Positions 20,101-36,046 of a DNA stretch of 64,000 bases are shown piece after piece. The stretch's first letter is position 1. Every line of letters begins with the position of its first letter. Below the pieces are notes generated by a model. That model saw only the letters and a list, made by a program, of their open reading frames with translations. It did not search any database and was not told where the DNA came from. The position numbers and the translations under genes were made by a program. Origin of the DNA: Anaerolineae bacterium (GTDB lineage Bacteria > Chloroflexota > Anaerolineae > Aggregatilineales > Phototrophicaceae); NCBI GenBank assembly GCA_022842885.1, contig JALHOR010000015.1:2219-66218 (forward strand), written 5' to 3'.

Positions 20101-23100
20101 TCACATTGTTCAGCGGAACATTGCCGATATTGGTAACAGTCATTGTAAAAGTAACTGTTCCGCCCAGTGCGGCATCTTGGGTATCGGGTGTCTTTTGAAT
20201 ATCAATCACTGGACCCGTGATTTGCTGGTTATTGAACGTGCAAACAATATTCTGGGCGCTGGCAAGCGTTAGCCGGACACCATTGGTAATATTGGTGACG
20301 CCCGTATCACATACGATATTGCTCAAATTCCAGCCAATCGGAATCGCTGTTTCGGTAATATCGTAAGTGCCGGGCAGCACATAATTGAAGATGCGCGTAT
20401 TGCCGGGAATAGTAGGACCACCGACGATACGAATGAAGTTAAGTTTGGTATTGGTACCGCCAATGGCATCCACCACGATGCGCCCAGTGGTAACATTTAA
20501 GGTGATCGTTGTCGTGCGATGCCGTTCAGCCGCGCCATTGGGAAAACCGGGGGGCGGTATAAAATTGTTAATGAAATTTACACCATTAACATTGATGCGA
20601 TGCGTGCTGTTGATATTGTCAGCATCGCCGACTGCCACGGTGATTTGGTACGAACCGTTGGGAACATTCATTATCCACGCCCGCGCTCCGGGGTCGGCGG
20701 CAGTTCCCTGAACATGATTGAATGAGTTGTATTCGGGTCCTAAAACACTGGTAGTACGATTACGAGCATTGTTATTGACCGAAGGCGCTGGATTAGCATC
20801 ATTGCGCGTAGCTTCCGTGACCCAGCCGAAACCACGAGCCGGAGTATAAGCCGCGCCAGTATCCGCCACATTAAAGGTTGCCGGGGCGGTGCTGCTCGTT
20901 CCAAAGTTGACATGCGTCTGAATCTGCGGACCTGTGCCAGTGCCGTTATCTGCGAGCGTGAAATTATTCAAGCCGCCTGTCACCGCAAAATTAAAGACTG
21001 TATTGCTTTCGGGTGTGGCTTCTTTGACGATGGTAATCGTACCGGGCTGATTCGCCGGGTCAATCACGCCGCTGGTAACGGTTGCGGTGCGCGTTACACC
21101 ACTGCTGACCGCATTAACGGTATTCACTTTTTCGCCCGCTGTTGTGGGTGCAACGGTAATGGTGATGGTCGCGGTTTGCTGCCCTAACACATTGCCCAAA
21201 TTGCATGTGATGGTGCCAGCAGCAAATGTGCATGTCCCTTGCGAAGGTGTCGCCGATACGAAATTCAATCCGGCAGGCAGCACATCCGTCACCACCATGT
21301 TGGGTGCTTGGAAAATCAAATTATTGGTAACACTTACGGTATAGCTGTAATTGGATCCCAGTGGCACACTCGGATTGCTCACGGTTTTGCTTAGTGTGAA
21401 ATCGGGTGGTGGCACTACAGCAGGTTCGATACCGGTAATCAAAAACACATGGTCTTGATAATCGCAGTTACCGCCACCACCAATGCCAGCCCCGCAGCCC
21501 GGTGCAACAAAATCTTGGATAGCCACATACGTATTCGGAACAACTTGCCCAGAGGGTGTGCGGAAGGGCCACAAGCGGAACCCATGCTGCGTACAATTGG
21601 TCACGCCTTCGCAGCGATTGGTATTGTAACCAGCGGCAGTAATCGAATAGGTGCCAGTTGCCGGCACAAATAAAACTTCAGTCGGGGCAGTTCCCGAACC
21701 CGTAAACGGCAGTAGGGTTTGGCAGTAATTAGGATTGTAGGCAGGGGTAGCGCCACCCGGACCACCACCGACCCGGTTAAACCGCAAAGAGGTATTGCTT
21801 GGGCAACCTTGATACGCCGCCAAGAAACGCCCATAAATTGGACCCGTTGGACGCCAATAATACGATAGAACTTCTTCCCCTTGGGGCGTATATGCCGAGT
21901 TCATGTTGGCAGGAATATTGGATGTGATACCGAAAGCATGTTGAATAATTTGCAAATAGGTTGGCTCTGTATTACCGCCCGAATTGCGCTGTCCCAATGA
22001 CCGTAACTGCACTGTCTGAACAGGATTCGTCGGGTCACTAGATGGAATAGTCAAGGTGCCACTGCTGGCAGAAATACCGCGATCTGGACCGGCTGTGGGG
22101 GGCAACAACGTAATCGATTCCACATAGCGCACGCGCAAATCATAAAAACCGCCGGGGGTAATCGTCGTCGTCCAACCCGCCGCATCTTCGTTATTCACCA
22201 AATCAAACCGTAAAGTATCGCTCACAGTCATGCGTGTCAGCACCAGCGGCGTGCCACCGTCGTTATGAATACGCAGGGTAATGTCTGTATGGCTATTAAT
22301 AGCACCATTATGAACTTTGCTGAACGATAACCAAGTATTGAGATAATTTAACTGCGGAATGCCCATTAAATTCAGCGTTGACCAATCGCGGTTTTCAAAC
22401 CGGATGCGCCCTTGACCTGCGGGGGTCGCCAAGCGCACATTCCGGGCGATAAAGACCACATCATTATAATCTTGCCCAGTTGTGGCTTCATCATAAGCGA
22501 TGATATATGCATTCGGTTCTAGCACACCGTTAGCATCTGTATACGGATAAATGCGAGCATGATGGGGATATGCACCAGCAAACACATTAAGCGCATCTTC
22601 TGTGCTGGTCACGCGCCCTGCCCATGTTGGGTGATCCCATTTGGCATAAATGCCAAATTTGGCAGTACCGGGGTCAAAACTGGTTGCACCACCTGTTCCG
22701 GGATTCAAAGTTGAAGAACTGCCCGCCGCAATCGTCATCACCGGATTGAGCGTAGTGTTGCCTGTCGGATGCCAACCAATCGTAGTGACTGGAGTATGAT
22801 TCAAGGCAAAGGCAGCTAGTGGTTGCAGCGTTACCGGTCCGGGACCGGCTTTTTCAAACGATTGAATGCGAATTTCATCCGGACCCAACTGCCCGCTAGT
22901 GGCTAATGCCACCGAACTGTGAATCGGGTTGGTCACGGGGTCATCATCACCCGTGGTAATCGGCAGTCCATATGCATCAAAAATGAATTGTAACGAGGGT
23001 TCGGCTGCGCCCCCCCCCGGCGGCTTCCCAATACCCCGCAATTGCAAAATCGTCTGCGGTGTATCGGGGTCATTGCTGTTAATCGTCAAAGTCCCAGATG

Positions 23101-25300
23101 AAACACCAATGGTCGGGTTGGTAAAGGTAGATGTGTAACGCACATTAATGGTAGCGGTCGTACCGGCAGCAACACTCGCCGGGCAAGCTGCCGCCAAGCT
23201 GAAAGGCGCAGCAATCACACAGTTAATCGTCAGAGGACCTGTACCATTATTGGTAATTTGCACCGCCCGATTTGGACCAACACCACCGCCATTATCGTCC
23301 AACATAGGGACAACCATCGGCGTAACGGCAATATCCGGTGTCGCCGGACCTTGGTCGAGTAGCACCGGCATATCGCCACCGATGCCGTCTAGTCGCGTGG
23401 TAAAGCCACCGGGCAGTTTCATCATGCCCGTATTGCCTGCCGGGCGTTGCCTAGAACCCACCGGGTTAGAACCGGTGCTGGTCTCCGCCACTTTGGAAGC
23501 ATCCAACGGGCGCAGCAGCATAATCGTGCCGGGGGCATATTCGGCAACATAGAGGTTGCCATTGCGGGTATCTTCAATTAAGTCTAGCGGGTCACGCAGC
23601 CCCACAAAACCGGGAATGCCTTCAATCACTTCGGCAATCGTGCCATCTTCGCCGGGCTTCAGCACGATAATGTCATCCATCAAACTGTAGCGCACGACCA
23701 ACAATCCGCCGAGCAATTTGCTATCAAACACATCGGTTTGATATTCGATGATACCATTCGCGGATTTGTTCAAACCAAAATCATAAGCATTCGCACCGCG
23801 CCAATTGCGGTCTGGTTGCAACCCCACTGGGTAATGGTCGCCTGTTTGACCGGGGTCGGGGCGGTCAGTCGGATTGCCGCCATTCAACACCCATTCGCAC
23901 CGTGCGGGGTTCGGTTGCCCATAATAACCACCCGCTTCAATCAAAAACAGCCAATCATTTTGCGCCGGGGGTTTCACATTCGGGGTAGTCGGTGCTGTGT
24001 AAACACCATTCGTCGCCGCATCAATCCGCTGTTCGCAAGCAACAGGCAGCGGATTAGGGGTTTCGGGGGTTCTGCCGCCGCCCGCCGTGCCATTCACAGG
24101 TGAGTATAAGATGCCGTTGCTGTGCCAAACCAGATCATAGGCATTCCGTAGTCCGGTTGCATACAATTTAACGGGTGCATCCGGCAGCAGCGGATTGTAA
24201 TAAATTTCAGGGTCATCCAAATCGGTATTGGTCTGGGAAAGTTTGGCATCGCCCAAGCCAAAATTGCGATTCACCAGAACTTTGCCATCTTCGCCGACAT
24301 CGCCTGTCGTCACATCCAGCGGTTTGCCATTGGCTTCAACATACGCCAACAGCAGTGCCGGGTCAATTTGCAATATGGAGCCGCTTAACATGGTTTCCAC
24401 TTGGTTGCCCCAACCGGGGTCAGGCGAACCTGCACCGCTGATGCTGCCTTGCGTGACATACATCATGCCATCTGTACCAAACTCAATGCTGTTGGTCAGG
24501 TGGTCACGGATAGAACGTGGCAGCCCCACAATATAATCGGTACGTGTCCATGTTTCACCGCCATCGGTGCTATCAATGCGGCTAATTTCGCTAGAAAAGT
24601 TGGGAGCATCCACCAAACCCGCAAAGTTGCTCGTCACCCATAGCAGCATATTATCGGGTGTCGAAGCCGGGTCGAATTTTAAGCCAATCAAGACGCGCTG
24701 TTCAAACAACGGGAAAACCCGTTCATCGCTCAATTTGCCATCATCATTGACCTGCCAGCTAAAAACTTGCCCGGCATGGTTGACAGCATACAGACGATTA
24801 TCAGGACCGAATGTTAAACCTGTGTATCCATTTTCGGCAGTTGCACCCGCATCCATCTGTTCAAATTCAATGCCCTGCACGGGTTCACCATCAGGCGTTG
24901 CGCCCGTAGTGAAAGTCAGGGTAAAAGGTTTGAGCGCGTTGCCCTTTTTATCTTTGACATTTTCGGTGAGCGTCAGTGTATATTGAGTATTCGGCACCAA
25001 TGCTGCCAACGGCTGTACGCTAATGCTATCGCGTCCATACGCAGTAATAGATGCGGCGACGGCTGTTTGCACTTCCGACTGTTGGAGTGTTAGGGTGGTG
25101 GAATTGAGCGTATTTATATCAATCCCGGCACCATCTTCGGGTAGCTTTAAGGTAATCGCCACGCCGGTGTAGATGCTGACATCTACTGCATTATTTGCGG
25201 GGACAATATCAATCACCTCAACCCGCGGTGTTTCCGTACAAGCGGTGAGCAGCGCCAACAACAGCGCAACAACACCCAAACTGAACAATTGACGCTTCAT
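14180..25300 (-). CDS. Giant (3706 aa) multidomain cell-surface protein with a lipoprotein signal peptide and an LPXTG sortase signal
   Basis: Likely start is the ATG at 25300 (GGAGGG upstream). MKRQLFSLGVVALLLALLTAC contains a lipobox. C-terminus is LPRTG (14291-14305), a TM helix and RRRHYR. Domains seen by eye: Big_5-like Ig; PQQ-type sugar-dehydrogenase-like propeller (GLRNAYDLVWHSNG, NGNLYVAEY); DUF4114-like modules (DYNDVVF / DYQDHVF); DUF11-type repeats; a malectin-like domain (YRVNVGG..ARFDG..YEVRLFFAE); InlB-B-repeat-like units; about 8 cadherin-like units (DNVDNG..DGSFTYTPNAGF.GTDTF). Confidence 0.9.
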   Translation of the reverse strand: MKRQLFSLGVVALLLALLTACTETPRVEVIDIVPANNAVDVSIYTGVAITLKLPEDGAGIDINTLNSTTLTLQQSEVQTAVAASITAYGRDSISVQPLAALVPNTQYTLTLTENVKDKKGNALKPFTLTFTTGATPDGEPVQGIEFEQMDAGATAENGYTGLTFGPDNRLYAVNHAGQVFSWQVNDDGKLSDERVFPLFEQRVLIGLKFDPASTPDNMLLWVTSNFAGLVDAPNFSSEISRIDSTDGGETWTRTDYIVGLPRSIRDHLTNSIEFGTDGMMYVTQGSISGAGSPDPGWGNQVETMLSGSILQIDPALLLAYVEANGKPLDVTTGDVGEDGKVLVNRNFGLGDAKLSQTNTDLDDPEIYYNPLLPDAPVKLYATGLRNAYDLVWHSNGILYSPVNGTAGGGRTPETPNPLPVACEQRIDAATNGVYTAPTTPNVKPPAQNDWLFLIEAGGYYGQPNPARCEWVLNGGNPTDRPDPGQTGDHYPVGLQPDRNWRGANAYDFGLNKSANGIIEYQTDVFDSKLLGGLLVVRYSLMDDIIVLKPGEDGTIAEVIEGIPGFVGLRDPLDLIEDTRNGNLYVAEYAPGTIMLLRPLDASKVAETSTGSNPVGSRQRPAGNTGMMKLPGGFTTRLDGIGGDMPVLLDQGPATPDIAVTPMVVPMLDDNGGGVGPNRAVQITNNGTGPLTINCVIAAPFSLAAACPASVAAGTTATINVRYTSTFTNPTIGVSSGTLTINSNDPDTPQTILQLRGIGKPPGGGAAEPSLQFIFDAYGLPITTGDDDPVTNPIHSSVALATSGQLGPDEIRIQSFEKAGPGPVTLQPLAAFALNHTPVTTIGWHPTGNTTLNPVMTIAAGSSSTLNPGTGGATSFDPGTAKFGIYAKWDHPTWAGRVTSTEDALNVFAGAYPHHARIYPYTDANGVLEPNAYIIAYDEATTGQDYNDVVFIARNVRLATPAGQGRIRFENRDWSTLNLMGIPQLNYLNTWLSFSKVHNGAINSHTDITLRIHNDGGTPLVLTRMTVSDTLRFDLVNNEDAAGWTTTITPGGFYDLRVRYVESITLLPPTAGPDRGISASSGTLTIPSSDPTNPVQTVQLRSLGQRNSGGNTEPTYLQIIQHAFGITSNIPANMNSAYTPQGEEVLSYYWRPTGPIYGRFLAAYQGCPSNTSLRFNRVGGGPGGATPAYNPNYCQTLLPFTGSGTAPTEVLFVPATGTYSITAAGYNTNRCEGVTNCTQHGFRLWPFRTPSGQVVPNTYVAIQDFVAPGCGAGIGGGGNCDYQDHVFLITGIEPAVVPPPDFTLSKTVSNPSVPLGSNYSYTVSVTNNLIFQAPNMVVTDVLPAGLNFVSATPSQGTCTFAAGTITCNLGNVLGQQTATITITVAPTTAGEKVNTVNAVSSGVTRTATVTSGVIDPANQPGTITIVKEATPESNTVFNFAVTGGLNNFTLADNGTGTGPQIQTHVNFGTSSTAPATFNVADTGAAYTPARGFGWVTEATRNDANPAPSVNNNARNRTTSVLGPEYNSFNHVQGTAADPGARAWIMNVPNGSYQITVAVGDADNINSTHRINVNGVNFINNFIPPPGFPNGAAERHRTTTITLNVTTGRIVVDAIGGTNTKLNFIRIVGGPTIPGNTRIFNYVLPGTYDITETAIPIGWNLSNIVCDTGVTNITNGVRLTLASAQNIVCTFNNQQITGPVIDIQKTPDTQDAALGGTVTFTMTVTNIGNVPLNNVTVTDPLAPGCDRNLGTMASTAVQTYTCTSEPITGNLTNTANVTGTPATGIAPTDFDTANVVLVNAALTINKTPDTQTLNPGATANFTVTVTNSGVIPLANVTVADPLAPACNRNIGAMAPGATTTYNCALANIPGTFTNIATVTGTLNGGSLVTASDTALVVSNITYGPATYRVNVGGPQLAAADGGVVWSRDQLAPGVAGAYPFLVNNMTISTSGFTGTNATNAPTALFGTARFDGTNNATRMQYNFTGLTPGQQYEVRLFFAENNFTAAGARQFHVDIAGTRVLTNFDTFAAALAQTGNGRNAIRRDFPVTVGAGGNILVDFAHGAFNNPTVRGIEIVPINPLLIANLGVNPTIVDFGTIIVGTTATAQNITLTNLGVVGAPNITTSNVAAAGATGQFTVNPLGATGIVIAPQTNDTSLTTNFAPTTEGVHQVTLTLTHDGANGPTSTITLRGTAVIPDLVFTPNTLTFNIDENSPDPTATLPVNLTQTFNLPTTATLDTSACPFVTAVTPPSGAVPASGGGNLPVQVTVNRTGLTPGPHTCILRATAPGYDPAQVTVTVNVTAANYDIQIINNAAQVTVNPAGPLVTVAPGANQTFTFTPQPGFIVTDVRLNGNSLGAITNYTLNNINSDYVIEVLSGPIPVYNLTVNVFGNGIVRPPASAGGDITANAVLTFTQGQTPTFNFLPAVGWRIDRVVTTDSSGNAVNRGAIPLYTFPAFSTNGVLDVHFVQQTPATLVLIKEATPEGATIFPFGVTGPNGFAQNFNIVDDGILPPSFVANINFSAQADPVPAGYTLDYGLSYRVQGGLEYGWVTQASIAAGGPGVPTNMVSLGRDRGFSPGIPQELDTYMHMQYFPFNNTFPNAAWEIVVPNGLYEVTVSVGDVLAPNNNSTHVINVEGQNFITFAQAGVSGTLARTRQATQTLPVTDGRLTVDAIGGTNTKINYVRIRQIVTTNNRQILSVIPGTYNIAETLQLGWNLTSINCTTGLTDAATGTASVTLAEGATATCTFNNAAVPVDAVNDTYLIAEGSLANIPVAQGVLLNDFPATGMTATVATPPIGVTGFALNANGSFTFQHTAGSTTPVTFTYTATDSVNNDVATVTVNILAAVNDTYAVISGQTLLTAAPGYLANDVFPVGATVALVDNVDNGTLVFNADGSFSYTPNAGFLGADTFQYNVTSGGVTDVATVTINVNPPVVVANDDIYTTNEDTVLNVPAPGILGNDTVPVGGVTITIMDNVDNGILVMNPNGSFTYTPNANFNGTDTFVYQLDDGATNLDTAIVTITVTPVNDAPVAVADAFVITQATILSVAAPGILANDTDVDNAIITVVAPTGHSGNPAWLGVNPDGSLFFAPDATFAGVYTFNYTVTDGTATSAPATVTITVNPLSSVAATNDAYNVNQGQTLLTAAPGILANDIYPVAGVTVNVTDNVDNGILTTANDGSFTYTPNAGFSGTDTFTYQIVNGADVAIAIVTITVNPLPAPVAVNDVAVVAAGATVGVNVTANDTFAPGAVAVTIVTAPAEGTAVVNGQNIDYTAPAVPTLGSVTLTYTIRDITTNVSNVATVTIVQNINAPSLFVSVTPNTQTVGTGQPVTFNLSIRNNGNTNLTGISFAITNSAGLPETCIIPAFDLAIGAQQTFTCTDAVAPATDYTRTFTASDGAGAVVAAATVQVLIGGNLPPIAADDVAQTNKNQAIEVPVVLNDFDPENALNPGSVIHITEPINGFIASINPVTGTMRVQPGTDFVGTLSFIYTICDLSGLCDTATVTVTVVDAPPGNVANPAQIGPDGQPLPPGAQVAGSVTVNPQISVFDPGLSKIGLLLPGQLGVNGEQIEWVIVARNIGTIVGTNVIVTDNLRSELRVDRAITSKGTASVSGQTVTFSLGDLAPGEAVQMSIFTTVLRGGVEVNNTATIVADNIPGGQARSVTARVVTTLPRTGESPWSGVRLLLLAAFGAVVMTISVVAFRVIRRRHYR

Positions 25301-25871
25301 ATATCCCTCCGACGGGACTTGATAACCAGAGCGTGAAGGCTTCATCAACATAAAACCATAATACACCCTATGCGGACTGCCGATAGGATGTTTCAGTAGC
25401 ACATTATTTATCGTAGAAACGATTTTATCAAAACACCAAAGACGGTTCATACCAGCCCCACACTTGCCGGTAAAAGATAAGTCTATTTAGCTTTTATACC
25501 CGCTTATAGTATCCACCCATTTTGCTTACCGTTTCACAAAATTAACTTAACGGTATCATTATTTTAAAGTTGAAATACAATGAATTTTACACCCAATTTG
25601 TTGTTATTTTGTGTAGATTTGGTGCGTTAATTGATTTATATTAAATATCCTTACAAAACCCCTAACATTTTAGGTTGAGTAGTGGCAAAACTTGCAAAAT
25701 TTTGTTAGTGAAACCCATTTTTAACCTTGCAAATCTACTACTCGTCCGTTTTTTCCTTACAAATCCATAACAATGTCAGGGTGTTTTAATATGTCGCAAT
25801 TTGTATCAATTTCTTTATGTGGTTGCAAGAGCGAGATAACCAGTTTTTATATTTCTTAACAACATCCTTCT

Positions 25872-25911
25872 AAAAACAAAATTGGGATAGTGATGCTCGT
25901 CTATCCCAATT
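25872..25911 (-). terminator. Intrinsic terminator after the 1077-aa regulator gene
   Basis: On the reverse strand: AATTGGGATAG-10 nt-CTATCCCAATT followed by TTGTTTTTAG, about 40 nt after the stop. Confidence 0.65.
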
Positions 25912-25949
25912 GGTTATCTATTAAGGCTGTGTTTGTTATGCAAGGTGTA

Positions 25950-28900
25950 TCATGCTTCTGGGTTGTGCAGGAAATACCCCACCCGTGACCGAGTTTGAAT
26001 ATAACTTTCGCCTTTGGCAAATTCAACTTTACGGCGCAGGCGACTCATGTTCACCCATAGGTATTCTTTGTTATCGCGGCAATCCGGTCCCCAAACTTCT
26101 GTGAGAAGTTCTTCATGTCGGATAACTGTTCCGGGATTAATCGCCAGAATTCGCAGCAGTTCATATTCAATGCGCGTTAAATCTAGCGGCTTACTCTCCA
26201 AAAATACCTCGCGGGTGTTCAAATCAATATGCAGTTTGCCAATCTGCACGGGTTCTTGGGTACGTTCCGATGTGGAAGTACGGCGCACCAAGTTTTCAAT
26301 TTTTGCCATCAACGCCATCACTTCCGATGGGTCAGTGGTAATGTTCAGGTAATCGTTCACGCCGATAGACAGCGCCGTTACTTTTTGTTTGACATTCGGA
26401 TTATCCGACAAAATTAACACAGGCAGTTTGGTCGTATCACGCAAGCGGCGGCAAACTGTCATACAATCGGCATCATTGGGCGTGGCATCCACCAGAATAA
26501 TATCATATGCCCGCGATTTGACTGCCCACTGCACATCTTCCAACGATGTACACTCATAAACGTGGTCGCTGCCATATTGGCTCATCATCACCGGAAGAAC
26601 GCGCTGCCACAAACGCGATGTACCGCGCAAAACAATAATACCTTGCAATTCGGGCGCAGGTGCTGCATACGAGACTTCGGGCAATGCCAACGTTACAGGA
26701 ACTTCTGGTTCTACAGGGCGCGGCAATATCATCGTCAAAACGGTGCCTTTGCCGGGAATATTATGCGCTTCTAGGGGGCTGCCATGTTTGTTAATCACTG
26801 CCCGCGCCAAATACATGCGAAGATGGGTAATACCATCTTGGAACGAATACTCACCCAATTCAGTTGGTTGGAATACTTGGCGATAACCATCGGCTGGAAT
26901 CACATATAAATCATTGCTGATACTCAGGCGTACACCGCCCTGTTTATCCACTTCTGCCCGGATAGTAGTGATTGTTCCATGTGGCACACTCTCGCTAATG
27001 GTATAGAGAATACGCGCAATCGCCCGTGCCATCCGATTCATATCCACCTGCACCAGCGGCACATTGTTGGGGATGCGAAATTCAAAGTCGCGCCGCTGCC
27101 GCTGCAAAATTCGCAGTTCAAAAACTTTTTCAATCAAATCTGACACACTGATTTCCGTCATGGAAAGGGTCATGGTTTTGTTTTGCAGGTCTTGGAGTTT
27201 CAGCAAATCTTCCCACAACTGTTCCAGATAATGAATCTGGCTTTGCAAACGGGTAATCAACTGCCGCCGAATATCCGTATCTAAGCGTTCATAGCGTTCC
27301 AGCAGCGTATCAATGAGGCTGTTTGCCTGAGCATATGGCAACCGGATATATCCAGCAAGTTGGTCAATGACGGACACAGGCATTTCTACTGGCGTGTTAT
27401 CCTGCTGTATCACCCGCACAATGCCTAACCAAGTAGCAGTATTGCCTTCATTGCGGTAGCGTGTCATCACCAATTCAACGCGCAACAAACATTGTAACCG
27501 CTGCGATGGAATCTCAAACTGATAGCGGTCTTCGCCATACGCTTCTGGGTCGCCTTCCAGACCTTGTTGCAACACATTCATAAATTGACGCAAGGTGTCA
27601 TTAAAATCATCCGCGCATTCTGCCAACCGCCGGAATAAGACACTGCCACTTTGCCCCACAATATCATCATGCGGTATCGCCGTTAGGGCGCTGAGTTGTG
27701 GATTGGCAAAAAGCACATGATTATCTTTATCAATGAAGAACACGCCTTCGGAAATACTGCGAAGAATTGTCTCTAGGTCATGGCTTTTTTGATCCATCAA
27801 CCGCATAAAATTGATATGTTCCAGAATTTGCCCGGCAATTTTGAGCAAATTTTCAAACAGTTCTAGCTCGGTATCATCCAAACTGCTGCCGGGAGTCAGG
27901 CTAATCGCCAGCGTTCCATTGATATTCTTGGCGCTGAAGATGGGCATAAAAATTAAATAACTGCCGCGCATCAAGTTAAACAAGCGCACCGCATTGGTAC
28001 CCGGTAATTGCTGCGGTCCCATTAAAATCGGCTGCAAATCAGCATGAAACTGCTTCAAAATTTGGTTCAGTTCGCGGCTATCGCGCAAGGTCGCAAACGC
28101 TTGGGTAACATTATCGCTGCCAGCACTGATGATATCTTGCTCGCAGCCTTCTAATGTAAACGCTGCCAACCACACTAAGCCTTGCTGCACATAGGGAAGT
28201 TCCACGACCAAATCATGCAAAGTATCCGCCACTTGGTGATAATCTTGCAGATGTGCCAACCGCTTCCATGCTTCCAGCAAAATATGATTATGCCGTTCTT
28301 GGCTTTGGTAACGCTCGTAACGATGCACCGTAGAGAAGGCAATCGTAAAATGACTTGCCAATACACTAAAAATATGAATATCCGTTTGGGTGAACAATTC
28401 GGCATAGCGACTGAATAACACCAACGTGCCAATCGCTTTAGCATGATAGGTGAGGGGCATAATCAACGCCCGTTGGGCATCTGGCAGCACCGGGCTGGCA
28501 ACGTAACCGGGCGTATTGGCAATATCGCCAAGTTGCTTAGGCTTACGGTCTACCATGACCGACAGCATCACATCATTCGATTGCAAATAAACGCGCCCAG
28601 AATGAAAACGATTCTTACCCGCCCCGCCCCGCAAACTAAAGATTTTGAATGCTTCATCTTTAATCAGGATGGTCGCCCCATACAGATTATAGGTATTGCA
28701 CAACTTATCCAAAAAATCATGAATGAAATTGGCATTTTGCGCCATGCCATGCACCACATTCAGCATCTCTGCTAGCCGGTTAAAGCTATCCAACGAGACA
28801 CCCTGTGTTGTAACATCCACCCGGAATAAGTTGCTGACCTGTTCTTTAAAAAGCGTCGAAGTCATTTCACCGGGCAGTACATTATCCATGCCCACACCCA

Positions 28901-29183
28901 ATGCCAACAGACGGCGATAATCGCTCACATTCATCTGATGTGCGACGAACCACACCGGCACATCGGGGTATAAGCGGCGTACCTGCTCTACCTGCCATAG
29001 TGCATCATAGTCGCCACTGGCAACCACCACTAACAAGTTATAGCGTTCATGTTGGGCAGTATCGAGCGCACGGTCAAAGGGTGATTGAATAACAATGTGA
29101 TAGTAATCAGTGATAGATTCATCAAGCCAAGCGGGTGTGCCATGGCTGATAACAAGAATTGAACCAAAACGTGTTGTAATCAC
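25950..29183 (-). CDS. Fused multidomain regulator: pseudo-receiver, GAF region, PAS, degenerate HisKA/HATPase-like region, receiver, OmpR/PhoB-type winged-helix
   Basis: C-terminus IGKLHIDLNTREVFLESKPLDLTRIEYELLRIL..LWVNMSRLRRKVE..IQTRSRVGYFL is an OmpR-type wHTH. It is preceded by a REC (YDIILVDATPND, PVLILSD). PAS-like ILRSISEGVFFIDKDNHVLFANPQ. The H-box position reads AGYIRLPYAQA, with no His. Confidence 0.85.
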   Translation of the reverse strand: MITTRFGSILVISHGTPAWLDESITDYYHIVIQSPFDRALDTAQHERYNLLVVVASGDYDALWQVEQVRRLYPDVPVWFVAHQMNVSDYRRLLALGVGMDNVLPGEMTSTLFKEQVSNLFRVDVTTQGVSLDSFNRLAEMLNVVHGMAQNANFIHDFLDKLCNTYNLYGATILIKDEAFKIFSLRGGAGKNRFHSGRVYLQSNDVMLSVMVDRKPKQLGDIANTPGYVASPVLPDAQRALIMPLTYHAKAIGTLVLFSRYAELFTQTDIHIFSVLASHFTIAFSTVHRYERYQSQERHNHILLEAWKRLAHLQDYHQVADTLHDLVVELPYVQQGLVWLAAFTLEGCEQDIISAGSDNVTQAFATLRDSRELNQILKQFHADLQPILMGPQQLPGTNAVRLFNLMRGSYLIFMPIFSAKNINGTLAISLTPGSSLDDTELELFENLLKIAGQILEHINFMRLMDQKSHDLETILRSISEGVFFIDKDNHVLFANPQLSALTAIPHDDIVGQSGSVLFRRLAECADDFNDTLRQFMNVLQQGLEGDPEAYGEDRYQFEIPSQRLQCLLRVELVMTRYRNEGNTATWLGIVRVIQQDNTPVEMPVSVIDQLAGYIRLPYAQANSLIDTLLERYERLDTDIRRQLITRLQSQIHYLEQLWEDLLKLQDLQNKTMTLSMTEISVSDLIEKVFELRILQRQRRDFEFRIPNNVPLVQVDMNRMARAIARILYTISESVPHGTITTIRAEVDKQGGVRLSISNDLYVIPADGYRQVFQPTELGEYSFQDGITHLRMYLARAVINKHGSPLEAHNIPGKGTVLTMILPRPVEPEVPVTLALPEVSYAAPAPELQGIIVLRGTSRLWQRVLPVMMSQYGSDHVYECTSLEDVQWAVKSRAYDIILVDATPNDADCMTVCRRLRDTTKLPVLILSDNPNVKQKVTALSIGVNDYLNITTDPSEVMALMAKIENLVRRTSTSERTQEPVQIGKLHIDLNTREVFLESKPLDLTRIEYELLRILAINPGTVIRHEELLTEVWGPDCRDNKEYLWVNMSRLRRKVEFAKGESYIQTRSRVGYFLHNPEA

Positions 29184-30011
29184 GACTAACCCCCTAGAAC
29201 GGAGCAGAACGATGGGGATGGCGAACCTTACAAAATACCAACTTTTCCTAAAAAAACTCTCGTGAATTTATAGTAAAAAGATGGGTTTGTGAGCCGCTGC
29301 ATCCAAATAACTGGCTAGCAAGGGAAAAACGCCCTTTTTTCCTTACAATCGTAAATACATCTTGACACTCAGTCCACTAAAAACTAAATTAACATAATTT
29401 ACGACGTTTAGCAAGAGGTCGGCGAAAGTATTTTTAGGTTTTTTGCACATTTCGATATTAATAAACAAAATTACCTTGCAATTTTTGCGGCGTTAGTTTT
29501 AGTAATATACACACAAAACACCAACGCGATAAAAACATCTTGCTCAACATATCTTTTTTTGCCCAAAGTCGCCTAACACAAGACTCTTTCTGAGAAGCGT
29601 TCATAACAAATTTTTAATCATCCCAGATGCAGTTAGCGAGGCTTTTCCTAACAGAAATTTATTTTTAAGATGCGTTTAAAAGTATTTCTTAATTTTTGTG
29701 GCAGATTAGTGAATGTTCTTCGCATCTTAAATAACAATGACAATGAAACAACAAGCAACTTGTAAACACTCTTTTAGTTTCACGTAATGTAATGAGGATT
29801 ACAGTAGTGTCAGCGGCAATATAGGTTATCACTATCATTCATGCTGCTACCCTTAACACACTATCCCAATTTTGGGATGTTCTGTATACTTTTATGACAT
29901 ACAGGCAAAATTCCCTTAACATTTATCCAGTATAGTGTAGGTGCTGGTCATTAATTCTTATTGCAGCCAACACTAACCATCATCAAATCGTCAGGGAAAA
30001 AGGCAAAAGTT

Positions 30012-31775
30012 ATGAATGGCAATGGGATGTTAGCCAGTAAAAACAATCGGCAGGGTAAGGTTGTCAATTATCCAGCTAATATGCGGGTCAGTGGGGATGA
30101 TACTATGCAAGAACGCGCCGCCCTTCCCGGCAATGAGGGAGACTTCCGAATGCCTGATGAGTTAGAAACTGTACCCATTCGGGAAACACTCACCAATACC
30201 GTTCCTTTGGATAGCACCCCAGCAGCAATTTTGTTAGATGAACTCTTGGCACGCTTGCAAGCAGCTAAAGCAGCAGAAGAAGAACGACTACCACAAACTG
30301 TCACAGAAATTCGGGAAACACCGACCGTTAAAGAAAATCTGCTGCGCTATTATGGCATCAAATTGGCTGTCTTATCGTATGCATCTGATTTAGTTTTGGT
30401 GGCATTAGCCCTTTTTTTCACCTTTGAGTCCAATGGCATCAGTTTTTTTGGGAACTTCATCGCGCTGCTGCCTGTGACTATCCCAGCATTGCTCGCATGG
30501 TCAGTCGCGTCCATCTACTTGGGTGTTTATAACCCAGATGAAACACGCTTTTTGCCTAATGAGCTTAAGAATGTTTTCATCAGCGTTGCAGCGATGACAT
30601 TGACATTCGCCGGGATTGAGTATCTGCTTGGATTTGTCAATCTTCTGCCAGTGAATTTTGCGATGCAATTCGCAGTCAGTAGCGTCATCATGTTCTTTGG
30701 GATGCGCCTAGCGTTACGCGCATATTACACAATGACCGGCAAAGCCCGTTATCCTGTTCGCAAAGCCCTCATCGTTGGCACGAACCCATTAGGAGAGCAA
30801 ACGGCACAAGTCATTGAGAAATATACGTGGTCAGGCATTTCAGTCGCAGGTTTCGTCGGGCCCAATGCCAAAGAACGCTATGGCGGGTATCCGGTTCTGG
30901 GGAACATCTACATTGATATTGCCGAAATTGTGACGAAAAATAATATCACTGAGATTTTCATCACCCTGCCCCACAAAGAAAGCCATTACATCCAAGACAT
31001 CATCCTCTCACTCCAGCATACTGCCGTGTATATTTATGCCGTGCCGGATAGCTTGACCTTGAGCTTGTACCAAGCTACGAGCAGTGTACCGGAAGAAAAA
31101 GCCCGCAGCGTAGACCTGAAACACGACGCAGCCGAAGTTCACTTTATCAACTTACGTGCGCCTATGTTGACGGCACGCCAATATATCCTGAAGCGGTTGA
31201 TGGATATTATGATTAGCGCAAGCATTATTCTGATGACTTCGCCTATCATGATTTTAACAGCCATCGCGATTAAACTCGATTCACCCGGACCCATCATCTA
31301 CAAATCGAAACGTATGGGTGAAAATGGGCGCGTCTTCAATATGTATAAATTCCGGTCTATGTGCCAAGATGCCGATGTGCGCCAAAAAGATATTATCAAA
31401 CGGGATAAAGATGGCAACATCATTCACAAATCTACCAACGATTCGCGTGTGACCCGTGTTGGCAAGTTTATCCGTAAAACCAGTATTGATGAACTGGCGC
31501 AAATGTTCAACATCTTCAAAGGCGATATGTCGCTGGTGGGACCGCGCCCGGAATTACCCATGCTGGTGTATGATTATCAAACTTGGCAATTTGCCCGTTT
31601 CGCTGTGCCACAAGGCTTAACCGGATGGTGGCAAGTCAACGGACGTAGCTCCAAATTGATGCATCTGCATACCGAATATGACCTGTACTATGTGCAGAAT
31701 TATTCGCTGATGTTGGACGTGAAAATTTTGTGGAAGACCATCCCAGCGGTGGTGAAGCGTAGCGGTGCATTCTAA
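30012..31775 (+). CDS. Polyprenyl-phosphate glycosyl-1-phosphate transferase (WbaP/EpsL-type initiating sugar transferase)
   Basis: N-terminal TM bundle, a Rossmann-like KALIVGTNPLGEQTA, and a C-terminal bacterial sugar-transferase domain (KLDSPGPIIYKSKRMGENGRVFNMYKFRSM, KGDMSLVGPRPE). Start is uncertain: the track gives TTG at 29961, and ATG at 30012 is used here. Confidence 0.85.
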   Translation: MNGNGMLASKNNRQGKVVNYPANMRVSGDDTMQERAALPGNEGDFRMPDELETVPIRETLTNTVPLDSTPAAILLDELLARLQAAKAAEEERLPQTVTEIRETPTVKENLLRYYGIKLAVLSYASDLVLVALALFFTFESNGISFFGNFIALLPVTIPALLAWSVASIYLGVYNPDETRFLPNELKNVFISVAAMTLTFAGIEYLLGFVNLLPVNFAMQFAVSSVIMFFGMRLALRAYYTMTGKARYPVRKALIVGTNPLGEQTAQVIEKYTWSGISVAGFVGPNAKERYGGYPVLGNIYIDIAEIVTKNNITEIFITLPHKESHYIQDIILSLQHTAVYIYAVPDSLTLSLYQATSSVPEEKARSVDLKHDAAEVHFINLRAPMLTARQYILKRLMDIMISASIILMTSPIMILTAIAIKLDSPGPIIYKSKRMGENGRVFNMYKFRSMCQDADVRQKDIIKRDKDGNIIHKSTNDSRVTRVGKFIRKTSIDELAQMFNIFKGDMSLVGPRPELPMLVYDYQTWQFARFAVPQGLTGWWQVNGRSSKLMHLHTEYDLYYVQNYSLMLDVKILWKTIPAVVKRSGAF

Positions 31776-31811
31776 GTTTAAACATGATATAGTTTGAATA
31801 TCTAACAGACC

Positions 31812-31832
31812 AATGGGCAAATTTTGCCCATT
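31812..31832 (+). terminator. Hairpin between the initiating transferase and the rest of the EPS operon (possible attenuator or partial terminator)
   Basis: AATGGGCAAA-t-TTTGCCCATT perfect dyad followed by atctgtttc. The T-tract is weak. Confidence 0.3.
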
Positions 31833-31906
31833 ATCTGTTTCAGGTGCAGACTAACCTTTTTCAAACGGTCAGACAACATAATTCTATCAAAAACAGGTGG
31901 TGAGGC

Positions 31907-33139
31907 ATGGCAAAACGGGACAAACTGCGCGTGGGCATGGTCGTACACGCTTATTATCTGCGCGACGCCCGTGTGATTCGGTATGCAGAAGCCCTCTCGC
32001 AAGCTGGGCATGAAGTCACAGTCATCTGCTTGCAAGACCCCAACGAACCCCAAGTGGAACATGTTAATGGGGTAGAAATTCAGCGCGTGAAGTTTGAACG
32101 GCGGCGGGGTGGCAAATTATGGTACATCATGGAATATGTGTGGGCATTTGCGCTGTTCTTTGTGCGCTTGACGCAGTTAGAACTGAAGCAACATTTTGAT
32201 GTGATTCATGTGCATAATATGCCCAATTTTCTGGTTTTTACGGGCATTGTCCCGCGCTTACGGGGCGCCCCTATCCTACTGGATTTGCATGACCCCATGC
32301 CAGAATTGTTCATCTCCAAATATGACCTTGAAAGTGGTCTTTTTATCAAACTTTTGGAGATAGAAGAACGTATCTGCTTAACCTTCGCGCAGCACCTCAT
32401 CACGGTAGATCAATCCTTCAAAGATATTTTTATCCGGCGGCATATTCGCGGGGATAAAATTAGTCTTGTCCGCAACATGCCAGATGAACGCTTCCAGCGT
32501 GCCGGGCAAACCTTACACACGATTGAACGCCCTAAAGATAAATTTGTCATCATCTACGCCGGCACCATCGCGGAACGCTACCAACTTGATAATGTGATTC
32601 GCGCGGTGGTCATTGCGAGCAAAGACGTTCCCAATATTCATCTGCGGTTAGTGGGCAAACTCGATAAAGAAGGTGCCTATACGCAGCAGCTTTTTGATTT
32701 GGTCAAAGAACTCAAAGCCGAAGACCGGATTGAATTTCATCCGCCTGTCCCCTTAGACGATATTCCGCGGTTGCTACAACAAGCCCATTTGGGGATTGAA
32801 CCTTCGCGCCATGACCCATATACCGATTATGTACTGCCGTTAAAGCTGCTTGAATGTGTGGCGGTTGGGATTCCTAATTTGGTATCACGCCGTCCAACGA
32901 TTGAAAATTACTTCGGTCCCGAAGCAGTGGCATATTTTGACCCAAGCAGCGTAGACGATATGGCAGCTAAAATGGTGGAATTGGCACAAAATCCAGAAAA
33001 ACTAACCACCATGGCACGCAATGCCCGCCTTATCTTCGATAAATACAATTGGTCAACCGAAAAAGCAACCTATTTTCAGGTGCTGCATCAATTGACTGGC
33101 ACACCTATTCAGACGGTGGCAGAAGCCTCACTGTCGTAA
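31907..33139 (+). CDS. Glycosyltransferase (GT-B, GT4-like)
   Basis: N-terminal RVGMVVHAYY..., C-terminal LPLKLLECVAVGIPNLVS motif. GGTGGTGAGG SD. Confidence 0.8.
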   Translation: MAKRDKLRVGMVVHAYYLRDARVIRYAEALSQAGHEVTVICLQDPNEPQVEHVNGVEIQRVKFERRRGGKLWYIMEYVWAFALFFVRLTQLELKQHFDVIHVHNMPNFLVFTGIVPRLRGAPILLDLHDPMPELFISKYDLESGLFIKLLEIEERICLTFAQHLITVDQSFKDIFIRRHIRGDKISLVRNMPDERFQRAGQTLHTIERPKDKFVIIYAGTIAERYQLDNVIRAVVIASKDVPNIHLRLVGKLDKEGAYTQQLFDLVKELKAEDRIEFHPPVPLDDIPRLLQQAHLGIEPSRHDPYTDYVLPLKLLECVAVGIPNLVSRRPTIENYFGPEAVAYFDPSSVDDMAAKMVELAQNPEKLTTMARNARLIFDKYNWSTEKATYFQVLHQLTGTPIQTVAEASLS

Positions 33140-33178
33140 GTAAACCGTCCGTCAGTTTAGTTCATATAGGACAGCGTA

Positions 33179-34534
33179 ATGAAACTGGTAGACTATATTG
33201 AAATTTTGTGGCGGCGCAAATGGATTATTGCGCTGGTGGTCTTGGTGGTTCTGCCTGTCGTCATCCTCGCCAGCCGACGATTGACGTATACCTACATGAC
33301 GAGCGCCAAAATTCGCATCATTACCCCCACCTATGGCACAGATGTCTGGGTCGGGTTTGATGTACGTTATGCGGAACGTTTGACGACGACCTATGTCGAA
33401 ATTGCCAAAACCGACCCAGTGATTAACAAATTATTGGCACGCCTCAACATTGAGAGCAAAGATTTACCGAAGTTGGATGTGCGGTTGATGCCGGGGAGCG
33501 AAATCATCGAAATTAGCGCAGAAGGCAAAAGCCCGGAAATCGCCCAAGGGGCTGCCAACGAACTCGCGGATATTATGGTTTCGCAAGAAGTGCGTTTTGA
33601 ATATGTCAATGTCATCACCGAAGACCGCAAAGCCGGGTTAGTGGTCGAAAAAGCCGGGCTACCCAGCCAAAAACGTGGGCTTAACGCCACCACCTTTATC
33701 ATGATCGGGGCAGTCATGGGGTTAGTCGGGGGTGTTGGGGTCGCCTTATTGTTTGAAAGTCTGGATACGCGCTTGCATACCGTCCGCCATATCGTGGGTG
33801 TCACTCGTTTGCCGCTATTGGGGACGATTCCTAGTCTTAAACGCAGCAAAGATAGCAAAAAAGAGACTTCCTGTGATAACGCTTTGCGCTTGGCGCTGCG
33901 CCTATTTCCGCCGGATAATGCCAATTCCCATACTATTTTGATGCTCGTGAGTGCGTTGCCCGCTGAGGGGCGCAGCACCGTTGTAGCAGAATTAGCATTG
34001 GCAATTGCGGACACTGGGCGCAGTGTGGTCATGGTGGATGCTAATTTACGCAACCCCGCTTTGCATGAATTGTTCAAACTGGAAAACACGCACGGTCTCA
34101 GCGACCTCCTGCAAAATAATGGTCAGCTTAGTGAGCTAATCCAAGTCATTGCCACCGACAAACCCTTGAGTTTGTTGACGGGTGGCACAGCCCTAGCCCA
34201 ACCTGCCCGTTTGTTGACAAGCGATGGTTTTAAGAAAATCTTAGATGACTTAACATCAAAATTTGATGTTGTCCTCATAGATACGCCGCCCTTAGTTGCC
34301 GCTTCGGATGCGTTGTTCATGGCAAAACAGGTGAGCGCGGTTATCCCGCTTTTAAGCCGAGGACAAACGCCGCGTCCGGCATTCCAAGAGTTGTATCAGC
34401 AGTTTGTAGAAAACGGCGCGAGTATCCCCGGTTTTATTATCAACCGAGCGCCCAAACAACTCACTTTGGGCAGTTATGCGGCTGCCCAAGCCCATAACGA
34501 CACGATCATCCGCCAAACCGTCGGCTTACAATAA
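33179..34534 (+). CDS. Wzz-type chain-length determinant fused to a BY-kinase-like P-loop domain (Walker A Lys replaced by Arg)
   Basis: Wzz N-terminus (YIEILWRRKWIIALVVLVV) and a second TM at about residues 172-195. P-loop SALPAEGRST (Arg codon 33971-33973) and Walker A' VVLIDTPP. No C-terminal Tyr cluster. Confidence 0.8.
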   Translation: MKLVDYIEILWRRKWIIALVVLVVLPVVILASRRLTYTYMTSAKIRIITPTYGTDVWVGFDVRYAERLTTTYVEIAKTDPVINKLLARLNIESKDLPKLDVRLMPGSEIIEISAEGKSPEIAQGAANELADIMVSQEVRFEYVNVITEDRKAGLVVEKAGLPSQKRGLNATTFIMIGAVMGLVGGVGVALLFESLDTRLHTVRHIVGVTRLPLLGTIPSLKRSKDSKKETSCDNALRLALRLFPPDNANSHTILMLVSALPAEGRSTVVAELALAIADTGRSVVMVDANLRNPALHELFKLENTHGLSDLLQNNGQLSELIQVIATDKPLSLLTGGTALAQPARLLTSDGFKKILDDLTSKFDVVLIDTPPLVAASDALFMAKQVSAVIPLLSRGQTPRPAFQELYQQFVENGASIPGFIINRAPKQLTLGSYAAAQAHNDTIIRQTVGLQ

Positions 34535-34540
34535 ACGAGC

Positions 34541-36013: not shown

Positions 36014-36046
36014 TTCCATCGCTGTCGGCAAGGGGGCAACATCATC

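Follow-up and report, generated by a model that had tools for sequence, protein, structure and literature searches.

A candidate phosphorylation-independent transcription factor built on a degenerate two-component system in Chloroflexota

What does a protein do when it carries the sensors, the kinase core, the receivers and the DNA-binding domain of a complete two-component system in one chain, and the residues of phosphotransfer are gone? The question is raised by a gene in a stretch of 64,000 nucleotides (nt) from an Anaerolineae bacterium (contig JALHOR010000015.1 of assembly GCA_022842885.1, positions 2,219 to 66,218), which is called the window here and whose numbering is used below. The 1077-amino-acid (aa) product of window 25950-29183 on the minus strand is referred to as the regulator. 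It was proposed earlier, from the letters of the window (the original prediction), that this protein is a two-component "fossil", a kinase/response-regulator fusion that has lost phosphotransfer chemistry. Our analysis favors, at a probability of roughly 60%, the view that the regulator, whose chassis is that of a complete and self-contained two-component system, is a cytoplasmic transcription factor independent of phosphorylation, gated by GAF and PAS domains and directed to CCTTRCAA-type targets. The passage of the signal from the GAF/PAS sensors to DNA is one that we infer to be allosteric.

Domain architecture and catalytic residues

The regulator gene has a Shine-Dalgarno sequence (AGGGGG) 6 nt 5' of its start codon and is single-copy within its own genome. 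Its GC content is 47.4% vs. 49.1% for the 6.0-Mb assembly; this composition is ordinary, and a horizontal transfer judged by composition was rejected on that ground. The protein is soluble, without a transmembrane or hydrophobic segment (maximum 19-aa Kyte-Doolittle mean 1.41). Eight domains could be assigned, in the order pseudo-receiver, GAF, GAF, PAS, DHp (the dimerization and histidine phosphotransfer hairpin), degenerate CA (the catalytic and ATP-binding domain), pseudo-receiver and OmpR-type winged helix. The gene and its domains are as follows, with the evidence for each domain in brackets; pLDDT is the predicted local distance difference test score of the structural model described below.

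25950..29183 (-): regulator gene, complete single open reading frame (ORF), 1077 codons, GTG start, no internal stops
28803..29171 (-): N-terminal Asp-less pseudo-receiver, aa 5-127 (family profile, model and motif columns)
28296..28793 (-): GAF 1, aa 131-296 (Pfam GAF_2 at 158-283, 7e-11; model)
27789..28295 (-): GAF 2, divergent, aa 297-465 (family profile against the 3eea GAF, weak, 4e-4; GAF-like secondary structure in the model)
27399..27788 (-): PAS, aa 466-595 (Pfam PAS at 469-590, 24.2 bits; PAS_9, 25.8 bits; model)
27180..27386 (-): DHp two-helix hairpin without phospho-acceptor, aa 600-668 (HK853 alignments; model helices)
26718..27179 (-): degenerate CA with Bergerat fold, aa 669-822 (profile, motifs, pLDDT about 70-87)
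26274..26642 (-): C-terminal pseudo-receiver, aa 848-970 (Response_reg at 861-957, 38 bits; profile against PleD/YycF, 1e-30)
25959..26240 (-): OmpR/PhoB-type winged helix, aa 982-1075 (Trans_reg_C at 998-1072, 66.6 bits)

The OmpR/PhoB winged helix behind a receiver, as first read from the translation, is confirmed: Trans_reg_C matches over profile positions 2-77 of 77 (cut-off 26.2 bits), and the recognition helix of this winged helix-turn-helix (wHTH), YLWVNMSRLRRK (YLWVN-SRLR-K), is nearly invariant in the family described below, its canonical relative G047 included. Other parts are more divergent. The Pfam PAS score lies around its threshold (22.6 bits), HATPase_c at 730-822 scores 24.3 bits and falls under its 26.4 cut-off, and HisKA reaches E=9.1 at best. 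Pfam gave no match for the N-terminal ~125 aa or for aa 297-465. The family profile matched the former to OmpR-family receivers (YycF, PhoP) in the PDB at 6e-12; the latter, GAF 2, was missing from the domain list of the original prediction. For the receiver-wHTH part the top NCBIfam match is RpaB, far below the RpaB cut-off; NCBIfam NblR and, weakly, Pfam GlnR_1st also match. Since all OmpR-family NCBIfam equivalogs stay far below their own cut-offs, the regulator is orthologous to none of the named regulators.

An AlphaFold2 monomer model built on a 19-sequence family alignment resolved all eight domains (mean pLDDT 75). It shows a (beta-alpha)5 fold at 7-127, DHp helices at 603-633 and 636-667, an alpha/beta CA domain at 676-820 and a disordered linker at 825-844, followed by the receiver and the winged helix. 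Foldseek matched the model to phytochromes, WalK, HK853 and KdpE, with a template-modelling score of 0.70 against HK853 when normalized by HK853 length. The DHp-CA part aligns to HK853 at 2e-6 alone and at 1e-34 with the family profile, both domains being covered. The regulator thus has the histidine-kinase fold, a DHp hairpin with a Bergerat-type alpha/beta domain.

The catalytic residues of that fold are another matter. Aligned to HK853, whether pairwise or by profile, the regulator has Gly611 (codon 27351-27353) in the phospho-His column and Tyr612 at H+1, the conserved-Glu position. The register is fixed by the R614-x-P616 anchor and by the canonical relative G047 (LSHELRTPL vs. LAGYIRLPY in the regulator). 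It had been read from the H-box that Tyr replaces His; the absence of His stands, and the Tyr was placed off by one. A DivL-like Tyr-for-His arrangement, considered as a candidate, is ruled out by the profile alignment. The N-box Asn column is Thr728, the G1 motif DxGxG reads N757-D-L-Y-V761 and the G2 motif GxGxG reads I785-T-H-L-R789, as unrecognizable as they had seemed by eye. The regulator therefore has neither the phospho-His nor the N, G1 and G2 boxes of a HisKA-type kinase, and because Gly occupies the His column and the N-box Asn and the G1 and G2 motifs are gone, its kinase core is predicted to be incapable of canonical autophosphorylation.

The two receivers were examined for the five active-site residues (the acidic pair DD1/DD2, the acceptor Asp, Thr/Ser and Lys; the quintet below). 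In the C-terminal receiver the metal-binding pair is Arg853/Gly854, the acceptor Asp899 (codon 26487-26489) and Ser926 are retained, and Asp951 takes the Lys column, following a 3-residue insertion and adjoining the invariant Pro952; three of the five residues are gone, the same three that had been found wanting at first reading. In the N-terminal receiver the acidic pair is Ser13/His14, the acceptor column is Val54, and the Thr and Lys columns are Ala81 and Gly105, in line with the earlier reading of a receiver without acceptor Asp. Neither receiver has the full quintet. Columns beside insertions or deletions (G1 and Lys) depend on the alignment method and were read from a family-only MAFFT alignment. 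DD2 binds the metal directly, Thr and Lys bind phosphoryl oxygens, and a pseudo-receiver is a computationally detected receiver domain in which at least one of the five residues is missing (PMC12632262). By these definitions the aligned C-terminal domain is classed as a pseudo-receiver and the N-terminal one as an aspartate-less receiver. Taken together, the profile alignments confirmed the residue substitutions and placed no conserved His or intact N or G boxes; without His, ATP motifs, metal pair or Lys, the inferred loss of phosphotransfer chemistry from a kinase/response-regulator fusion is borne out.

The Chloroflexota family and its canonical relatives

Is this state peculiar to one gene? 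A search of 5.8 billion proteins returned 18 relatives with the same architecture (21-30% identity, E 1e-135 to 3e-75), of which 17 measure 1053-1127 aa and one is a 921-aa fragment; with one exception they cover 94-100% of the query, and none of the 18 has a precomputed HisKA match. A profile search of 1.84 billion representatives (a 50%-identity library) gave about 50 full-length clusters. Family members are present in 16 of 61 related genomes, among them 13 of the 36 genomes that represent, one per genus, the other genera of this GTDB family. One genome of the GTDB family encodes a protein at zero tree distance from P0007, which NCBI lists under Chloroflexi/Chloroflexota. The family comprises at least 65 sequence clusters, and the family-only alignment holds 65 non-redundant Chloroflexota members.

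Across these 65 members the His column is predominantly acidic (Glu 36 and Asp 13, together 49/65), the others being Ser 5, His 3, Asn 3, Gln 2, Arg 1, Ala 1 and Gly 1, the last in the regulator only. At H+1 there is no Glu, and Tyr occurs in 6/65, so that it is not conserved. The quintet of the C-terminal receiver is intact in none of the 65: DD2 is Gly in 49, the Thr position is Ala in 41, Lys is kept in five, and the acceptor column holds Asp in 49 members, with Glu in 12 others. The N-terminal receiver keeps its acceptor Asp in 41/65 relatives, the regulator having Val54. The N, G1 and G2 boxes are all intact in 15/65 members, which form one or a few clades. The regulator shares the eight-domain order, the non-His H-box and the Gly at DD2 that mark the family; its His column is Gly, not Glu or Asp.

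Six canonical fusions of the same or similar architecture (G047, P0074, P0076, P0114, P0123 and P0138), which came out of these same searches, serve as comparators. All six have the His, in H-boxes of the SHELRxPL type, and an intact quintet. G047 (locus L024), from the same bacterial order, scores 56.6 bits for HisKA, 103 for HATPase_c and 100 for REC, and P0074 appears by eye to hold the whole eight-domain architecture in canonical form. Since canonical fusions of the same architecture are intact, the dead state would be derived from a working fusion of histidine kinase, receiver and wHTH. The survey of this architecture across genomes, called for by the original prediction, thus yielded 65 family members and six canonical fusions.

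The degenerate motifs of the regulator recur in distant sisters. G013 has the same odd G1 remnant (SND-LY), and P0075 shares an Asp-less N-terminal receiver (LILIVAT), Arg-Gly at the acidic pair (LRG) and a degenerate CA; both are ~30% identical to the regulator, whose closest relatives reach 31-32%. Because these motifs are common to distant sisters, the dead state is judged from the alignments to be old and retained, predating the lineage of the regulator. In the tree the regulator groups with G013 and G018, a grouping to be read with caution as it joins three long branches. Conservation is highest in the wHTH (50% identity between the regulator and its relatives, 72% among the relatives), and of the 56 residues invariant over the 19-sequence alignment, the regulator included, 24 lie in the wHTH. 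The label "fossil" is therefore misleading for a dead state that is common to at least 65 clusters and predates the lineage, with fold and wHTH maintained. We read the regulator, on these comparisons, as an old, retained, fast-evolving pseudo-system and not as something like a fresh pseudogene.

Some further features of the family were noted on the way. A Trp in DHp helix 2 (LWDNF; aa 657, codon 27213-27215) is family-specific, present in 55/65 members; in the canonical fusions this column is Leu, Val, Ile or Ala. A His 20 residues past the H-box column (EQH; aa 631, codon 27291-27293) occurs in 39/65 members. It was considered as an alternative acceptor and rejected: it is also found in 3/6 canonical fusions, it is Tyr in the regulator and eight others, and it sits at the hairpin end of helix 1. 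In P0037 (986 aa; G019, locus L032) most of the DHp H-box region and the G2 region are apparently deleted and GAF, PAS, receiver and wHTH are retained, a further step in the reduction of the kinase core. A group of short fusions of about 600-660 aa (P0079-P0132) has the order PAS-DHp-CA-REC-wHTH. By eye their receiver quintet (DD, D, T, K) is fully canonical, and the H-box His is replaced (by Asp, Arg, Tyr, Gln or Ser) in about 15/19. They are possibly an intermediate stage, pseudokinase cores fused to apparently live OmpR-type receivers.

The retained Asp899 raises the possibility that the C-terminal receiver is still a phosphoryl acceptor. Asp899 (with Ser926) would then receive phosphate from another histidine kinase or from a small-molecule donor, and the dead core would serve only as sensor, phosphatase or scaffold. 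The acceptor Asp is kept in the regulator and in 49/65 relatives, the regulator keeps the Ser/Thr as well, and the usual loss of His beside a canonical quintet in the short fusions suggests phosphorylation in trans in that group. In the regulator, however, Arg at DD1 and Gly at DD2 remove both metal ligands, the Lys column is Asp, and not one family member has the full quintet. DD2 binds the Mg2+ directly, which is needed for the chemistry (PMC12632262), so that phosphorylation of Asp899 is very unlikely. Moreover, the well-studied atypical OmpR-family regulators ChxR (PMC3960148) and HP1043 (PMC8345958), which keep the Asp, work without phosphorylation. We consider a phosphorylated C-terminal receiver to be a very improbable account of the regulator.

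Candidate operators and genomic neighborhood

If the output domain is maintained, where would it bind? Downstream of the regulator on the same minus strand lies the gene of a 3756-aa LPXTG protein, the adhesin (14180-25450); upstream and divergent is a Wzx/Wzy exopolysaccharide (EPS) operon (29961-39992), with genes for a Bac_transf protein, a GT4 glycosyltransferase, a Wzz/AAA_31 protein, Wzy_C, a flippase and two further GT4 enzymes. This location, between a giant adhesin gene and a divergent EPS operon, agrees with the original prediction, which had named both as the obvious candidate targets. The two spacers flanking the regulator are AT-rich (33-35% GC) and contain six exact copies of CCTTRCAA, all on the plus strand, against 0.074 expected (0/20000 shuffles). 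Genome-wide there are 338 copies in 6.0 Mb, and clusters, defined as at least three sites with gaps of no more than 200 bp, occur twice, in these two spacers only.

29226..29481 (+): CCTTRCAA cluster, three sites (29226, 29341 and 29474), 43-298 bp upstream of the regulator start
25649..25762 (+): CCTTRCAA cluster, three sites (25649, 25725 and 25755), upstream of the adhesin gene
25880..25911 (-): perfect 11-nt inverted repeat AATTGGGATAG-N10-CTATCCCAATT, 39 nt past the regulator stop, followed by a T-run

Since all the sites lie on the plus strand, the regulator and the adhesin gene are each preceded by three sites in the same relative orientation. A 1-mismatch copy is found at 25690. The 29226..29481 cluster is a candidate autoregulatory operator, and its distance from the EPS start is 480-735 bp. 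The motif clusters thus point to the regulator's own promoter and to the adhesin gene, as had been suggested for the latter, and not clearly to the EPS operon. In the nearest relative, P0075, for which no more than 168 bp upstream were available, the same word (TTTTGTAAGGT) is found at -65 with matching orientation, and CTTRCAA occurs within 250 bp upstream of 6/16 family genes, all four of the regulator's subclade among them. The core of the motif resembles the high-light regulatory 1 (HLR1) half-site of RpaB, (G/T)TTACA(T/A)(T/A) (PMC6525291). CCTTRCAA was also considered as a family-wide operator and rejected, the exact 8-mer being absent upstream of most relatives and k-mer enrichment being no better than in shuffled sequence; as far as sequence comparison goes, the case for the motif is confined to the regulator's subclade and G047.

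Scans of 25300-30100 for sigma-70 promoters and intrinsic terminators gave counts at or below shuffled expectation. The hairpin at 25880..25911 escaped the consensus scan because its loop exceeds 8 nt. With its T-run 39 nt past the regulator stop it is a probable terminator between the regulator and the adhesin gene, which suggests separate transcripts. The 11-mer CTATCCCAATT is present in both spacers (25880-25911 and 29856-29885); at 29856-29885 it is part of a near-palindrome, TATCCCAAttTTGGGATg, which precedes the start of the EPS gene by about 80-100 bp. This repeat could be a terminator, a second type of operator, or both.

Conserved adhesin/EPS synteny was looked for at the relatives' loci and not found: an EPS-like cluster stands beside the family gene at L007 only, and the loci L035 and L008 offer no more than isolated genes for glycosyltransferases or sugar modification. 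The conserved neighbor is instead a gene for a small FHA-domain protein (143-168 aa), absent here, which lies immediately upstream of the family gene in about 10/17 loci examined, divergent in all but G019 (co-directional). It accompanies both CA-intact and CA-degenerate clades, and its motifs are conserved (RPWR...GVSRxH...SxNGT).

L005:3523-3963, L006:3226-3660, L007:9474-9914, L008:1573-2079, L009:9347-9778 (-): FHA genes beside a regulator homologue
L017-L020, L032-L034: FHA genes at further loci

The FHA neighbor is absent at the window locus, in G013, G018, G005 and G027, and in the canonical G047. No remnant was detected beside the regulator, where there is no similar ORF of at least 20 aa and tblastn of five FHA partners against 29100-30100 returned noise only (E >0.6). 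The regulator's genome encodes about 10 similar FHA paralogues, the best ones elsewhere and not obviously orthologous. Among other loci of this genome, contig C4:71307-72221 encodes an FHA-receiver fusion, and on contig C69:1353-2872 the gene of a zinc-ribbon/FHA protein immediately precedes that of an OmpR-type regulator; the pairing of FHA domains with response regulators seems to recur in this organism.

These observations bear on the proposal that the family has swapped His-Asp phosphotransfer for Ser/Thr-phosphate signaling through FHA domains, control being exerted by the small FHA protein or by a Hanks-type kinase with PP2C rather than by a small ligand, and the regulator using one of its ~10 FHA paralogues in trans. 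The conserved gene order in CA-intact and CA-degenerate clades alike speaks for it, as do the paralogues, with the FHA-REC fusion and the FHA gene beside an OmpR-type regulator. Yet no FHA gene or remnant adjoins the regulator itself, the gene is also missing beside its nearest relatives G013 and G018, and no family-specific conserved Thr was found, the invariant Thr501 and Thr1003 belonging to generic PAS and wHTH motifs. The retention of two GAF domains and a PAS domain favors ligand sensing. We regard this proposal as unlikely for the regulator.

The locus also differs within the genus. No orthologue of the regulator is present in two same-genus genomes (G001 and G002), nor is there one of the adjacent EPS priming transferase; the best hits there are paralogues of 33-35% identity. 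Because both are absent, the regulator/EPS block appears to be accessory to the species, and the adhesin gene probably is likewise.

Proposed mechanism, known systems and implications

How might such a protein work? In the reading that we prefer, a phosphorylation-independent transcription factor, the tandem GAF and PAS domains would sense small-molecule or redox signals, and the dimeric DHp coiled coil would relay them. The sole remaining role of DHp and CA would be that of a scaffold for dimerization and docking, and this scaffold would decide whether the tethered pseudo-receiver/wHTH is restrained or free to dimerize on DNA. The likely targets would be TTRCA-type sites (CCTTRCAA) upstream of the regulator's own gene and of the adhesin gene. 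The regulator would thus be a local controller of functions at the cell surface, the divergent EPS operon possibly among them.

Several points weigh against this reading. The branch of the regulator is 2.47 substitutions per site long vs. a median of 0.25, and identity to relatives is lowered in every domain (ratios 0.54-0.91), most of all in both receivers; constraint on the regulator may be relaxed. Adhesin/EPS synteny is not conserved among the family loci examined. The CCTTRCAA motif was defined post hoc from the same spacers in which it is counted, its sites are 30-130 bp apart (operators of the OmpR family are typically tandem repeats of 10-11 bp), and a degenerate partner half-site at +9 to +12 accompanies 4/6 sites only (P about 0.02). 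In a k-mer test no word was significantly enriched over 16 family upstream regions vs. shuffled controls. Finally, the structural model has a predicted template-modelling score of 0.36, so that its inter-domain geometry and packing are not reliable.

The first of these points would also suit a true fossil, in which this copy is a functionless relic nearing pseudogenization and other family members are functional. The terminal branch is the second-longest in the tree, the lowered identity extends to all domains, the motif set is the most degenerate of the family, with Gly at the His column here only, and both the FHA partner and orthologues in same-genus genomes are absent. Against this, the frame runs uninterrupted through 1077 codons behind a good Shine-Dalgarno sequence and start, and all domains are predicted to be folded (mean pLDDT 75). 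The 56 family-invariant residues, 24 of them in the wHTH, are all present, although by construction, since the alignment includes the regulator. Furthermore, the degenerate features are common to the ~30%-identity sisters P0075 and G013, so they have long persisted, and the motif clusters that are unique in the genome flank this very gene. A relic is, on balance, distinctly unlikely.

A broader idea is that the whole lineage has converted a His-Asp pathway into a hard-wired allosteric switch. A fixed carboxylate (Glu or Asp in 75% of members) would stand in for phospho-His, the pseudo-receiver would keep its Asp and lose the metal, the docking interface would become a ligand-controlled clamp on the wHTH, and the FHA partner in most members would bring in Ser/Thr-phosphate signaling. 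This is a tentative and rather doubtful proposal; if true, the switch would be a natural, covalently linked model of pseudo-receiver on/off control.

The phosphorylation-independent transcription factor that we favor can be compared with several known systems. The canonical order-mates, G047 and others, share the order GAF-GAF-PAS-HisKA-HATPase_c-REC-Trans_reg_C (homology of G047 at E 2.6e-77), and their recognition helix, YLWVNISRLRKK, is nearly identical to that of the regulator. They keep SHELRxPL, the N/G1/G2 boxes and the full quintet, whereas the regulator keeps none of these; G047 in turn is without the N-terminal pseudo-receiver that the regulator has. The hybrid two-component systems (HTCS) of Bacteroides have periplasmic glycan sensors and AraC-type DNA-binding domains. 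Like the regulator, they join a sensor kinase, a receiver and a DNA-binding domain in one chain, and face the common design problem of how to hold back a DNA-binding domain that is attached to a dimeric kinase; HTCS do so by an inhibitory REC-DNA-binding-domain contact (PMC11253607). HTCS are membrane proteins with real phosphotransfer (PMC11253607), whereas the regulator is soluble, senses through GAF and PAS, has an OmpR-type wHTH with no AraC match, and is without phosphotransfer residues; it is not a member of the HTCS type.

Among kinase folds without phosphotransfer, DivL of Caulobacter has a Tyr that occupies precisely the His column, and RetS functions independently of canonical autophosphorylation. 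The regulator is not of the DivL type, since its His column is Gly (Glu or Asp in relatives) with Tyr at H+1, and its receiver and DNA-binding domain are in cis. What it shares with DivL is a kinase fold that has no phosphorylatable His and is repurposed as a scaffold, DivL sensing a separate response regulator (PMC4211667); the DivL structure (PDB 4q20) is among the family-profile matches (1.9e-23). RetS (PDB 6dk7) matches the family DHp-CA profile at about 2e-21. PsmA of Streptomyces is a hybrid histidine-kinase-like protein without the critical His and with no reliance on a canonical phosphorelay (PMC12963549). PsmA and RetS have no DNA-binding output and act through protein-protein contacts, whereas the regulator ends in a wHTH; neither shows sequence kinship to it beyond the kinase fold. 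The output end resembles ChxR (PMC3960148) and HP1043 (PMC8345958), which combine an OmpR-type wHTH with a receiver of incomplete quintet, and the NblR and GlnR-type pseudo-receivers (PMC12632262), with an incomplete DD/D/T/K quintet and an OmpR-type wHTH. These atypical regulators stand alone at about 230 aa; their counterpart here makes up the C-terminal quarter of a protein of eight domains that, unlike them, has its own sensors and a dead kinase.

The ingredients are known: pseudo-histidine kinase, atypical OmpR-type regulator, aspartate-less receiver and hybrid one-chain system. A prior description of the combination, a conserved eight-domain family with a mostly acidic His column, a receiver dead in every member and a frequent FHA partner, was not found in the literature searched. 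Pseudokinases and pseudo-receivers are common in bacterial genomes, and how pseudo-receivers are activated is an open problem according to a 2025 review (PMC12632262). In this family one chain unites candidate inputs (GAF, GAF and PAS) and a DNA-binding output with a pseudo-receiver and the scaffold of a dead kinase, and intact homologues of the same architecture serve as evolutionary controls. Its graded intermediates, with ATP motifs in 15/65 members and intact receivers in the short fusions, make the order of losses and the repurposing of the kinase-receiver interface directly testable. It is also a warning for annotation, as the labels "response regulator" and "histidine kinase" in Chloroflexota metagenome-assembled genomes can hide a total loss of phosphotransfer. 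For this organism, the regulator is nominated as the local controller of the 3756-aa LPXTG protein, and perhaps of the EPS operon, in an accessory locus; for the study of signaling, the family may serve as a natural model of pseudo-receiver control.

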